Source: Escherichia phage BEK7
Length of the DNA stretch: 51,031 bases
Sequence record: MN158209.1
Strand: one strand, 5' to 3'
Numbering within the stretch: the first letter of the stretch is position 1; every line of letters begins with the position of its first letter. A model generated the notes under the pieces. The model had not been told where the DNA came from. It saw only the letters and a list, made by a program, of their open reading frames with translations, and searched no databases. Positions 33,427 through 36,986 of the stretch are shown here, in pieces. The translations under genes were made by a program, and so were the position numbers.

Positions 33427-34545
33427 ATGAGTCAAAGCAAGATAACCGACGAGCAATTCACGCATGAGCGATTAAAGGGTAAGAGCTATCGACAGATTGC
33501 TGAGGAATACGGCCTGAATGTTCGCAGCGTCGAGCGCCGAGCGGCACGACTGGCAAAGCAGGGAAAAATAACCACTGTAGGAACGCCTGGTTTTGGTGTT
33601 CACGGCGAATCGGTCATGACCGACAAAGAAGGTAACGTGATCCTCAAATGGACAAAGACCAGTAAGGACAAAGAGCAACTGGAAGCGTTGATGCGCGCAG
33701 CTATGGACGCTTTTACCGAAGAATTACCTCGTGTAGATCCGACACCAGAAGAAACAATAAAATACAGAGAAAGCCTTGCCCTTTACCCCGTTTTTGATAT
33801 GCACCTGGGAGCTATGGCGCACAAGCACGAATGCGGCGAGAATTGGGATACATCAACGGCAGAGAAGGTAATGAATGACTTTTTCGATTATGCTGTGGCC
33901 TGCGCCCCGTTCAGCGAGAAAGCAGTGCTGCTGATTGGCGGCGACATGCTTCACAGTGACGGCCTGGAAGCGGTAACTCCTGCAAGCGGTCACGTATTGG
34001 ATCAAGATAGCCGATACGCAAAATTAGTTTACGTTGCAATTCGTGCCGTCCGTCGAGCCATTGAGTTGATGCTCAAAAAACACAAAGAAGTCGAGATCCA
34101 GATAATTGAGGGCAACCATGACCAAAGCGGCATGATCTGGTTACGTGCAGCTATGGCGGCGGCATATGAAAAAGAGCCTCGCGTTTACGTTGATGTATCG
34201 CCGCGAGTGGTTCACCATACGCAGTACGGAAAAACATTCCTTGCATATCATCACGGTCACACCGTCCGAAAGCCGGAAACATTGCTAATGATGTGCGCAG
34301 CAGACTGGCGGGAGGACTTTGGAAACTCAAAAACTATGTATGCGCACGTAGGGCATTTTCATCATCAGACTGTAACAGAAACATCGCTAGGCATTGTTGA
34401 AGTACATAGCACGATGGCAGCTAAAGACGCATACGCCGCGCGAGGCGGTTGGCGTTCCCGTCGCCGTGCTGCGGTTATCATTTACGACAAAGAACACGGC
34501 GAAATCGGACGCTTTATGTTTTATCCTGAAATGGCAGATAAATAA
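33427..34545 (+). CDS. calcineurin-like metallophosphoesterase with N-terminal HTH domain
   Basis: Phosphoesterase motifs DMH, GGDMLHSDG, EGNHD and His-rich HVGHFHH; N-terminal HTH-like YRQIAEEYGLNVRSVERR. Confidence 0.6.
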   Translation: MSQSKITDEQFTHERLKGKSYRQIAEEYGLNVRSVERRAARLAKQGKITTVGTPGFGVHGESVMTDKEGNVILKWTKTSKDKEQLEALMRAAMDAFTEELPRVDPTPEETIKYRESLALYPVFDMHLGAMAHKHECGENWDTSTAEKVMNDFFDYAVACAPFSEKAVLLIGGDMLHSDGLEAVTPASGHVLDQDSRYAKLVYVAIRAVRRAIELMLKKHKEVEIQIIEGNHDQSGMIWLRAAMAAAYEKEPRVYVDVSPRVVHHTQYGKTFLAYHHGHTVRKPETLLMMCAADWREDFGNSKTMYAHVGHFHHQTVTETSLGIVEVHSTMAAKDAYAARGGWRSRRRAAVIIYDKEHGEIGRFMFYPEMADK

Positions 34546-34546
34546 A

Positions 34547-34717
34547 ATGAAAGTACGTTGCACCAGAAACACATCTAAGCAATTGCCCTACACCGTCGGC
34601 CTGATTTACACGTCGGTAGCAATCCCTGGCGGGATGTATGAGATCCGCGACGGACAAGGTAGCGCGATTATCGCACCACTACACGGCTATTATCTGACTT
34701 TTTCGCCAGTAGAATGA
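34547..34717 (+). CDS. hypothetical small protein
   Basis: 57-aa ORF starting at ATG overlapping previous stop (TAAAATG). Confidence 0.3.
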   Translation: MKVRCTRNTSKQLPYTVGLIYTSVAIPGGMYEIRDGQGSAIIAPLHGYYLTFSPVE

Positions 34718-34740
34718 CCATATAAAACATTAACTTATAA

Positions 34741-34772
34741 GGAGGCTTGATTTTTAAGTCTCCTTTTTTTAT
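34741..34772 (+). terminator. rho-independent terminator
   Basis: GGAGGCT-loop-AGTCTCC followed by 7-nt T-run. Confidence 0.6.
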
Positions 34773-34840
34773 TTATTTTTTCAGCACAATGTTTAAAATA
34801 CAATCATCACTATTGACATTTGAATAAAGAGGATCTAAAT

Positions 34841-35056
34841 ATGAAAGATTTTTTGAACGCTGCAACGTCCGGCACGGGCGGCGCATCAATCACTGGAGCA
34901 GTAACAGGACAAACGGCAATTGCAATTGCCAGCTTCGTATTGATGGCTATTTTCGGCGTATGGGGCGCTTATCTGCGGTGGCGTGATAGTAAAGCCTTCC
35001 AGAAGGCGCTTGATAGTGGTGACTTTAAAAAAGCAATTGAAATCAGGGGTAAATGA
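34841..35056 (+). CDS. holin (pinholin candidate)
   Basis: 71 aa with one clear hydrophobic TMD and charged C-terminus; RBS AAGAGGA; directly upstream of and overlapping the endolysin gene. Confidence 0.6.
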
Positions 35057-35544
35057 TGAGCGCAAGAAAAAGCATCGTGTCCGTCGCTATCGGTGCTGCG
35101 CTTGCTCTTACTTCTCCACTCCTTGAAGAAATTGAGGGGATCAGATACACGCCATATAAAGATATTGCCGGAGTCTGGACGGCATGCGCCGGAATCACCG
35201 GAAAAGATGTGATTATCGGTAAGACCTACACAAAGCGAGAATGCGATGCGCTACTGGCAAAACATATCAAGGTGGCAAAGGATGAAGTAGACAAGCGCGT
35301 GAAGGTTGAAATCCCAGCCACGATGCGAGCGGCGATGTATAGTTTCACTTTTAACGCTGGCGTTGGTGCATTCCGCAATTCGACAATGCTCAAACTGATT
35401 AATCAGGGCAGATTGCCGGAAGCGTGCCAGCAGTTATGGCGGTGGGATAAATTCACGAATCCTAAAACCGGAAAGAAAGAACTCTCGAAAGGTTTACGCA
35501 ACCGCCGCGCGGTGGAATTTAAATATTGCATTAAGGATCTGTAA
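35053..35544 (+). CDS. SAR endolysin (phage lysozyme family)
   Basis: N-terminal weakly hydrophobic Gly/Ala/Ser-rich segment ([18 protein letters not shown]) followed by lysozyme catalytic region [23 protein letters not shown]. Confidence 0.75.
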
Positions 35545-35546
35545 TT

Positions 35547-35945
35547 ATGCGAAAGTTATCAATAATCGCGATCGCTGTTATTTTGTCTGGATGTTCAAGC
35601 GTTACGCCACTGACCGGATTAATCGGCAGTAAACCGGAAATCACAGCACAGGCAGGAGCTGAGAACGTAAAGCAGACCGTTGGCGTTACCGCAAAGCAGG
35701 ACACCAGTACAAAACAGGAAACCACAATAAAGGAATCTGCGGTTGATAAGGTGGACACTTCAAGCAAGAAGGATTTCACTACGTCAACCATTCAGGCTAA
35801 CACCATCAAGGCTGATAAAATCCAGGTCGTGCAGGGTGAGCAAAGGAAATGGTACGATCCTATAATCTATTGCGCTGCGATTTTCAGTGGTCTTTTGACT
35901 ATGCTTTACTTTTCCTACCGCAAAGGCAACAAAAAGGAGGCTTAA
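35547..35945 (+). CDS. unimolecular spanin (u-spanin)
   Basis: N-terminal lipoprotein signal with lipobox LSGC plus C-terminal TMD (IIYCAAIFSGLLTMLYF); architecture as described for T1 gp11. Confidence 0.7.
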   Translation: MRKLSIIAIAVILSGCSSVTPLTGLIGSKPEITAQAGAENVKQTVGVTAKQDTSTKQETTIKESAVDKVDTSSKKDFTTSTIQANTIKADKIQVVQGEQRKWYDPIIYCAAIFSGLLTMLYFSYRKGNKKEA

Positions 35946-35956
35946 CGCCTCCTTTG

Positions 35957-36199
35957 TTATTCAATACGCTTTACAGTAACCAATAAAACGCCGTCATCAT
36001 CACACAAATTATGCTCTGATATGTTAAACGCTCGCATGTCAGAATGAATTAGCGTTAACATTGCGTGCATGAAGTCGCCATGTGAGATTTGAGAAGTAGC
36101 GCAAAACTTAAGAATTTCATCTATCAGTTTACTTTCCATGATTTTCATGATAACCAAGTTTAGCCTCTGCTTGTTCTCTTGCCATAATTGCATCATCAA
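35957..36199 (-). CDS. hypothetical protein
   Basis: 80-aa ORF, last gene of leftward cluster. Confidence 0.35.
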   Translation of the reverse strand: MMMQLWQENKQRLNLVIMKIMESKLIDEILKFCATSQISHGDFMHAMLTLIHSDMRAFNISEHNLCDDDGVLLVTVKRIE

Positions 36200-36214
36200 T
36201 GCTTGAAAATAATC

Positions 36215-36601
36215 CTAAATGAATACTCTTACCTTTATCATATATGGTTGCATGCCATTTCTTTCTTTCTTCCTCCAGCACACTCCAACCCTACCAGATT
36301 TATTTCTTTTTAGTAGAGATACGTTTTTGCTGTTCTCTAATCTTGATGCAAGCCTTAAATTTTCAATCCTGTTATCCAACCTATTGTGCCATATATGATC
36401 TATCTCCATTCCTTCTGGTATTTTTCCATTGTGCATTTCCCATATTATTCTATGAGCCAAAAGCAATACACCATTATACCTTATTCTTACATAGCCATTT
36501 TTATCTACACATCCAGCAACGATTCCTGGCTTTGCTTTTCCCCTTCTGTTTCTCCATCTCAATATTCCATTGTCATATATAAATATTTTATTCCAATCCA
36601 T
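36215..36601 (-). CDS. HNH homing endonuclease
   Basis: HRIIWEMHNGKIPEGMEIDHIWHNRLDNRIENLRLA. Confidence 0.85.
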   Translation of the reverse strand: MDWNKIFIYDNGILRWRNRRGKAKPGIVAGCVDKNGYVRIRYNGVLLLAHRIIWEMHNGKIPEGMEIDHIWHNRLDNRIENLRLASRLENSKNVSLLKRNKSGRVGVCWRKKERNGMQPYMIKVRVFI

Positions 36602-36986
36602 ATCTTTTCCTTAGAGCTTCTATTTGTTGTCTATTAGCATTTGGCGTAAACAATTCTTCATCACTCATTTCTCCGATCCGTAAAACATCTCTTACCCATT
36701 CGTTTTGCATACCTTCCAGGCTGTAAAGTTCAAACGAGAAAGGGCGATTTGCTGATCCTTTCTTACACCAGAACTTTCCACAAACTCCATCAAGATAACC
36801 AGCAGTCATCATTCTTGCGCAAAACTCTTTTGAAACGGCAGTCGCAAACATTCTCGGCGTAAATCCTGCGGCCCTTGCGAGCCGCTCACATTCTCTGTGC
36901 TGAAAGATAAATTTTGCTATATGTTGACGCGTAAACCATTCGAATGACTCACACCAGCGATAAATATCAAGTAGAAACACGATCAC
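36588..36986 (-). CDS. hypothetical protein
   Basis: 132-aa ORF (true start probably internal ATG). Confidence 0.35.
   Translation of the reverse strand: MIVFLLDIYRWCESFEWFTRQHIAKFIFQHRECERLARAAGFTPRMFATAVSKEFCARMMTAGYLDGVCGKFWCKKGSANRPFSFELYSLEGMQNEWVRDVLRIGEMSDEELFTPNANRQQIEALRKRYGLE

Follow-up and report, generated by a model that had tools for sequence, protein, structure and literature searches.

The genome of Escherichia phage BEK7 (MN158209.1; 51,031 nucleotides, referred to here as the window) carries what is in all likelihood the late lysis cassette of a T1-like siphophage. Judged from their sequences, its genes would code for a holin, an endolysin of the signal-anchor-release (SAR) type, and a unimolecular spanin (u-spanin). 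The three genes lie tightly packed on the plus strand at positions 34841-35945, where they are bracketed by two hairpin terminators. The T1-type arrangement is already known from T1 itself and from hundreds of related phages, and its occurrence in BEK7 is an ordinary finding. The features of the cassette and its surroundings are as follows.

33427-34545, plus strand: SbcD-like exonuclease/phosphoesterase gene, 372 aa (annotation in relatives)
34547-34717, plus strand: DUF7244 (standalone SH3-like) gene, 56 aa (Pfam PF23896, E 3.5e-27)
34739-34765, plus strand: hairpin terminator with a T-run, between the exonuclease/DUF7244 genes and the holin gene (terminator scan, fold, T1 equivalent)
34794-34799, plus strand: TAnnAT (TAAAAT in BEK7), candidate -10 element of the lysis cassette (suggested by alignment)
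34841-35056, plus strand: holin of the T1 gp13 family, candidate class II pinholin, 71 aa (T1 gp13, PHROG 2877, hydropathy, family alignment)
35056-35544, plus strand: predicted SAR endolysin, GH24 muramidase of the R21 type, 162 aa (PF00959, 3HDE, RrrD, T1 gp12)
35071-35124, plus strand: putative SAR domain, endolysin residues 6-23 (read from sequence, hydropathy, 3HDE alignment)
35134-35181, plus strand: catalytic triad of the endolysin, E27-x8-D36-x5-T42 (read from sequence)
35547-35945, plus strand: predicted unimolecular spanin of the T1 gp11 family, 132 aa (T1 gp11, PHROG 1804, homologues)
35547-35594, plus strand: lipoprotein signal peptide of the spanin, with an LSGC lipobox at residues 13-16 (read from sequence)
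35859-35918, plus strand: C-terminal transmembrane domain (TMD) of the spanin, about residues 105-124 (hydropathy, AlphaFold2 helix, homologues)
about 35928-35958, both strands: bidirectional hairpin terminator between the spanin gene and a convergent minus-strand gene (folds of both strands, T1 equivalent)
36215-36601, minus strand: HNH homing endonuclease gene (PF13392, E 7.6e-22)

Matches to known families, together with 129 matching phage records, indicate that the three ORFs of the cassette are not chance ORFs. The first matches a PHROG holin family (E 3.4e-34), the second the Pfam family Phage_lysozyme (E 1.2e-36), and the third a PHROG family of Rz-like spanins (E 5.2e-50). Over a 1.3-kb stretch, the DNA is 100% identical to that of Escherichia phages BEK1-23 (MN158211.1) and BEC3, both of which are classified in the genus Hanrivervirus (Drexlerviridae, Tempevirinae), and the same DNA is matched by a further 127 phage records, hence the total of 129. 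In the BEK1-23 record, the genes are labeled holin, lysin, and hypothetical protein, and the names given to the third one in close relatives are RzlA, Rz-like spanin, and u-spanin. The order holin, endolysin, u-spanin was found in all 17 of the close IMG/VR loci that were retrieved. The same arrangement is described in papers on phages TLS (PMC11447400) and KanT1 (PMC13164509), the latter of which reports a module of exonuclease, holin, endolysin, and spanin in 508 of 522 Drexlerviridae. In addition, members of the T1gp11 spanin family lie almost exclusively within cassettes that pair a pinholin with a SAR endolysin (Kongari 2018, PMC6139136).

Twenty unannotated GenBank records named “Campylobacter phage A1xx” (MG0656xx; host given as C. 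jejuni) also match the cassette, the 15 that were listed at ~85-96% identity. Their host label is doubtful, since the records look like T1-like coliphages.

An initial annotation of this DNA had described three overlapping or abutting genes, and the three ORFs are indeed arranged in this way, with a 1-nt overlap at the first junction and a 2-base gap at the second. Its reading improves on the GenBank records of the identical sequence, since in these the third gene is a “hypothetical protein” with no spanin name and the endolysin carries no SAR mark. It overlooked that cassettes of this kind are familiar from earlier work, and it did not mention the DUF7244 (SH3-like) gene just upstream. The significance of the cassette beyond annotation is small, as its biology is that of the established T1 paradigm.

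The first gene begins with ATG 34841 and ends with a TGA stop at 35054-35056. It had been called a small holin, and this identification is borne out by the 71-aa product, which matches PHROG 2877 along its full length (residues 1-71 against profile positions 1-71) and is 61% identical to T1 gp13. According to Kyte-Doolittle (KD) hydropathy, the protein contains a single strong TMD, which covers about residues 25-45 (27-45), and its C-terminal tail is basic. Residues 4-24 form a conserved N-terminal segment rich in Gly, Ala, Ser, and Thr, and seven positions (M1, K2, F4, T9, G14, A20, and Q24) are invariant in the family alignment. The loop between the two putative helices is three residues long (G-Q-T). 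Hydropathy values and insertion energies, the latter on an approximate Hessa scale, are both crude measures. On the Hessa scale, 19 residues of the N-terminal segment come to an insertion energy of ~+5.6 kcal/mol in T1 and ~+7.4 in BEK7 (residues 4-22, hand calculation), and the TMD1 region of EssD, a holin of the S21 family, falls in the same range at +6.5. In S21, TMD1 is a releasable SAR-like helix. The weakly hydrophobic N-terminus and the strong TMD after it would speak for a pinholin-like protein of class II, albeit one with a periplasmic loop of only three residues.

Pinholins, a class defined for S21 68, form nanometre-scale holes that depolarize the membrane but do not let the folded endolysin pass (PMC9239132). 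Homology of the BEK7 holin to the S21 pinholin was considered but not detected. In a Pfam search, the holin had no match to PF04971, the S21 family, at E ≤1, whereas EssD scored 2e-35; a BLASTP comparison of the BEK7 holin with EssD found nothing; and an hhalign comparison of a 22-sequence T1-type alignment with a 26-sequence S21-type alignment returned a probability of 0.4%. Finally, when 1.84 billion representative proteins were searched with a profile, just eight clusters were obtained, all with E below 1e-10, which presumably represent the same small, tight family. The pinholin label is thus not supportable by homology.

The initial annotation had argued for a pinholin on the grounds that SAR endolysins are normally partnered with one. 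The T1 annotation and the literature agree with the call itself; the argument, however, is a tendency rather than a rule. The gene that neighbors the holin gene is indeed that of the SAR endolysin, with a 1-nt overlap, and likewise in the 17 related loci. Nevertheless, such pairing is not obligatory, as phage Mu has a SAR endolysin without any holin (PMC9239132). Since the pairing is only a tendency and the holin shows no homology to the only well-characterized pinholin family, “candidate pinholin” is the fitting strength of claim, drawn from analogy and from the SAR endolysin as its partner.

The holin can also be read in other ways. Published TMD counts for T1-type holins conflict, with one given in the T1 record (AY216660: “1 transmembrane domain, predicted N-out and C-in”) and two predicted in the TLS paper, where the T1 and TLS holins are assigned to the class II pinholins (PMC11447400). 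One alternative, which is rather unlikely, is that the 71-aa protein is a large-hole holin of the canonical type and not a pinholin, the rest of the cassette being as described. A SAR endolysin would be released under these circumstances as well, since the triggering of any holin collapses the membrane potential, and the Mu system shows that SAR endolysins do not require a pinholin (PMC9239132), while u-spanins function in both types of system (PMC6139136). The failure of four methods to find homology to the S21 pinholin points in this direction too, as does the presence of only one segment clearly hydrophobic enough for a stable TMD, in keeping with the single TMD of the T1 record. Such a holin would, however, be very small, and it would sit uneasily with the conserved G/A/S/T-rich N-terminal segment, whose hydropathy resembles that of the TMD1 region of EssD, as well as with the judgment of specialists, who annotate the homologues in T1, TLS, and KanT1 as class II pinholins (PMC11447400, PMC13164509).

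A second alternative, to which modest weight is given, concerns topology: the holin may be a single-pass protein with its N-terminus out and C-terminus in, never having two inserted TMDs, so that its N-terminal 24 residues stay in the periplasm throughout and it forms a topology class of its own. The prediction in the T1 record is of precisely this kind, a C-in orientation suits the basic C-terminal tail, and a mere three residues between the putative helices, along with the strongly positive crude insertion energy of the N-terminal segment, fit it as well. Two TMDs are nonetheless predicted for the T1 and TLS holins (PMC11447400), and the TMD1 region of EssD is equally unfavorable on the crude scale, so the energy does not exclude transient insertion. 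A broader proposal, also tentative and put forward from sequence comparisons, is that T1-type holins may be a pinholin family that evolved independently of S21, with an N-terminal segment that is either a releasable inhibitory pseudo-TMD or periplasmic throughout, and that the DUF7244 protein may act as a fourth, accessory lysis factor. Whether the T1-type holin is a pinholin, and with what topology, is a question general to T1-like phages and not particular to BEK7. In the literature, no experiments on a T1-type holin or endolysin were found; of the three proteins, gp11 is the only one tested.

No dual-start motif was found in the BEK7 holin, which has a single start. A TTG at 34820 was entertained as a dual-start (antiholin) codon and rejected, since no Shine-Dalgarno sequence precedes it and AGAGGA at 34829-34834 serves ATG 34841. 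Some relatives of the holin do have an extra upstream Met, including MVDHMKE... in locus L017 (1252-1479) and M1RDFLLM2 in TLS (PMC11447400), a hint that some members of the family have an antiholin made from a dual start.

The endolysin gene has tandem ATGs at 35053 and 35056 and a TAA stop at 35542-35544, giving a product of 162 aa (163 aa from 35053). Position 35056 is the start used by GenBank and in T1; it overlaps the holin stop by 1 nt (TGATG) and lies 6 nt from a GGGG Shine-Dalgarno sequence, a better spacing than that of 35053. The closest relatives of known structure are 3HDE (phage 21 R, the prototypic SAR endolysin, E 1.4e-41) and 4ZPU (DLP12 RrrD). The HMMER alignment with 3HDE covers residues 3-159, and so takes in the N-terminal segment, with a 6-residue deletion relative to 3HDE between that segment and the catalytic Glu. 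RrrD, the R21-like endolysin of the DLP12 prophage, is 49% identical, although the BLASTP alignment starts only at residue 24. Residues E27, D36, and T42, which make up a conserved E-x8-D-x5-T triad, align with E35/D44/T50 of the R21-like chain and RrrD, the catalytic residues there.

The putative SAR segment follows R4 and K5, and 9 of its 18 residues are Ala, Gly, Ser, or Thr. Its best 19-residue window has a KD value of 1.64 and a G/A/S/T content of 47%. The stretch lies inside the 3HDE alignment but is of low complexity. Compared with R21, the hydrophobic part spans fewer residues and is, on a crude scale, less hydrophobic. Across the 17 related loci, the C-terminal half of the segment (starting with G) is conserved and the other half variable. 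Catalytic Glu27 is four residues from the segment. From work on Mu gp22, SAR domains are described as weakly hydrophobic, rich in Gly, Ala, Ser, and Thr, and situated after a short basic stretch (PMC9239132), a description that the BEK7 segment fits, and gp12 is a predicted SAR endolysin in the TLS paper (PMC11447400). The earlier reading of the second gene as a lysozyme with a weakly hydrophobic, SAR-like N-terminus is upheld by the PF00959 match, the triad, the homology to R21, and the composition of the segment. Sequence comparison thereby supports an endolysin of the SAR type, which would be uncleaved, tethered, and released upon depolarization as R21 is.

The N-terminus might instead be a cleavable Sec signal peptide, in which case the endolysin would be a soluble periplasmic enzyme controlled in some other way, but this is very improbable. 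The positively charged n-region (R4, K5) and short hydrophobic core are those of a signal peptide, the segment has an unfavorable insertion energy on the crude scale, and A15 and A17 fit the -3/-1 pattern, with small residues recurring at these positions in relatives. Such an A-x-A-like motif within the N-terminal segment does not discriminate, however, since it is expected from composition alone in SAR domains rich in Ala, Gly, and Ser. The protein is moreover a clear homologue of R21, in which the equivalent segment, covered by the alignment, serves as an uncleaved SAR domain; a periplasmic lysozyme with constitutive activity would be lethal to the host too early for assembly to finish; and the curated annotation of T1 and TLS specifies a SAR endolysin (AY216660, PMC11447400).

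An IMG/VR contig (L022:1166-2356) carries an R21-like SAR endolysin between an S21-like holin and an Rz-like i-spanin. One endolysin lineage is hence paired with unrelated holins and with different spanin types.

The spanin gene starts with ATG 35547, two bases past the endolysin stop, and its product shares 47% identity with T1 gp11 across 127 of its 132 residues. It has 602 homologues, some of which are named u-spanin or RzlA. The initial annotation had described a lipoprotein signal (LSGC) and a C-terminal TMD, the architecture of T1 gp11; both elements are present, both are conserved across homologues, and T1 gp11 is labeled a u-spanin in its own record. The lipobox ends in Cys16 (codon 35592-35594), and the residue at +2 is Ser, which would imply sorting to the outer membrane. 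A canonical lipobox is found in 116 of 120 homologues (LSGC in 110), with Ser at +2 in 115. The C-terminal TMD (KD 1.68 for residues 106-124) coincides with an AlphaFold2 (AF2) helix at residues 103-128 (pLDDT 83-90) and is present in 113 of 116 homologues. No Cys occurs between Cys16 and the TMD in BEK7, and only 1 of the 116 homologues has a periplasmic Cys.

According to Kongari 2018 (PMC6139136), u-spanins have a lipobox Cys not followed at +2 by a residue for inner-membrane retention, a C-terminal TMD, no periplasmic Cys, and a periplasmic domain dominated by beta-strands, and the T1gp11 family is delimited by ≥40% identity over ≥40% of the length. At the level of sequence, the BEK7 protein lies within this family threshold and has the described lipobox and +2 residue, the TMD, and a periplasmic portion free of Cys. 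In the AF2 monomer model (52-sequence alignment), the mean pLDDT is 55, and only the two terminal helices, corresponding to the signal peptide and the TMD, are confident; residues 17-76 have pLDDT <50, and the model shows no strands, a result that is neutral with regard to a beta-rich periplasmic domain. T1 gp11 complements the lysis defect of lambda Rz/Rz1 and is the sole member of the family so shown (PMC6139136); the u-spanin entry of the T1 record cites PMID 30135120 for molecular function. A search of the other reading frames for an embedded or overlapping o-spanin-like ORF revealed none with a lipobox. The identification of the third gene as coding for a u-spanin, with predicted lipidation, is accordingly a supported one. 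A KKEA C-terminus is seen in 67 of 116 homologues. Since the 5' arm of the downstream terminator encodes the last spanin codons (K-E-A), conservation of this end may be due to the stem of the terminator no less than to what the protein does.

By homology to phage 21 and T1, lysis by the cassette can be pictured as a programmed sequence of events. The 71-aa holin would accumulate in the inner membrane, while the endolysin would be exported by Sec and held there, tethered and inactive, by the weakly hydrophobic SAR segment at its N-terminus. The spanin would be lipidated at Cys16 and, with Ser at +2, sorted to the outer membrane, its C-terminal TMD staying in the inner membrane. Given an outer-membrane lipid anchor and an inner-membrane TMD, a single molecule would bridge the periplasm by passing through the meshes of the murein. 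Triggering of the holin at a programmed time would depolarize the membrane, most likely via small “pinholes”. The SAR segment would then exit the bilayer, allowing the endolysin to refold and degrade the murein, and the freed spanin would disrupt the outer membrane, probably through its fusion with the inner membrane.

Phage T1 (AY216660) is among the closest known parallels. Its record labels gp13 “pinholin class 2”, gp12 “SAR endolysin”, and gp11 “u-spanin”, and the respective identities to BEK7 are 61%, 65%, and 47%. The two phages share gene order, product sizes (71/162/133 aa in T1 and 71/162/132 aa in BEK7), the 1-nt overlap of holin and endolysin genes, terminators on both sides of the cassette, and, upstream, genes for DUF7244 and for an SbcD-like exonuclease. 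They differ in subfamily, with BEK7 in the Tempevirinae (Hanrivervirus) and T1 in the Tunavirinae. In addition, the endolysin and spanin genes are 2 nt apart in BEK7 but overlap by 1 nt in T1, and T1 carries an HNH gene in the interval from its exonuclease gene to its DUF7244 gene, whereas BEK7 has one inserted downstream of the cassette.

The systems of phage 21 and DLP12 (S21/EssD, R21/RrrD, Rz/Rz1) resemble that of BEK7 in having a homologous endolysin (49% identity to RrrD) with the same triad and a SAR-like N-terminus. Their holin is also 71 aa long, overlaps the endolysin gene by 1 nt, and shows a comparable hydropathy pattern, weak in the N-terminal segment and strong in the TMD behind it. 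The BEK7 holin is nonetheless not detectably homologous to S21 and is without the dual-start motif; six fewer residues link the SAR segment to the catalytic Glu in BEK7 than in R21; and phage 21 uses a two-component, embedded Rz/Rz1 spanin instead of a single u-spanin. Mu gp22 is, like the BEK7 endolysin, a GH24 SAR enzyme with an E-x8-D-x5-T motif and a weakly hydrophobic segment from residue 6. Mu has no holin, however, and employs the releasin gp25 (PMC9239132), whereas in BEK7 a gene of a conserved holin family directly precedes that of the endolysin.

Upstream of the cassette, the DUF7244 gene has a counterpart in T1 orf14, which also matches PF23896, and for DUF7244 an accessory role, as a “shell” component in the lysis modules of Drexlerviridae, has been proposed (PMC13164509, 2026). 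Since a strong terminator (34739-34765) separates it from the holin gene, the DUF7244 gene looks coupled to the exonuclease gene. In phage vojen, no DNA aligns to 34547-34717 and no gene is annotated there. The 372-aa exonuclease has a weak N-terminal match to a helix-turn-helix (sigma-70 region 4-like) family, at E 6.5e-05 and below the Pfam cut-off. Just downstream of the cassette, the HNH gene is contained in an insertion of ~485 bp relative to vojen (36128-36612) that adjoins a YdbL-like gene. A second annotated homing endonuclease gene is found further downstream on the minus strand, from ~37442.

The terminator upstream of the holin gene consists of a 12-bp stem plus TTTTTATTTA in the terminator scan, and its RNA fold has an energy of -14.2 kcal/mol (z -3.87). 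For the downstream hairpin, folds of the two strands gave -15.6 and -17.1 kcal/mol (z -3.65 and -3.99). T1 has annotated terminators at places equivalent to both. A promoter scan did not find a sigma-70 consensus promoter upstream of the holin gene. The candidate -10 element at 34794-34799 is suggested by an alignment of T1-like holin upstream regions, in which the T, A, A, and T of TAnnAT are invariant (12 of 12); TTGAC, at 34813-34818 in BEK7, is shared by nine of these 12 regions.
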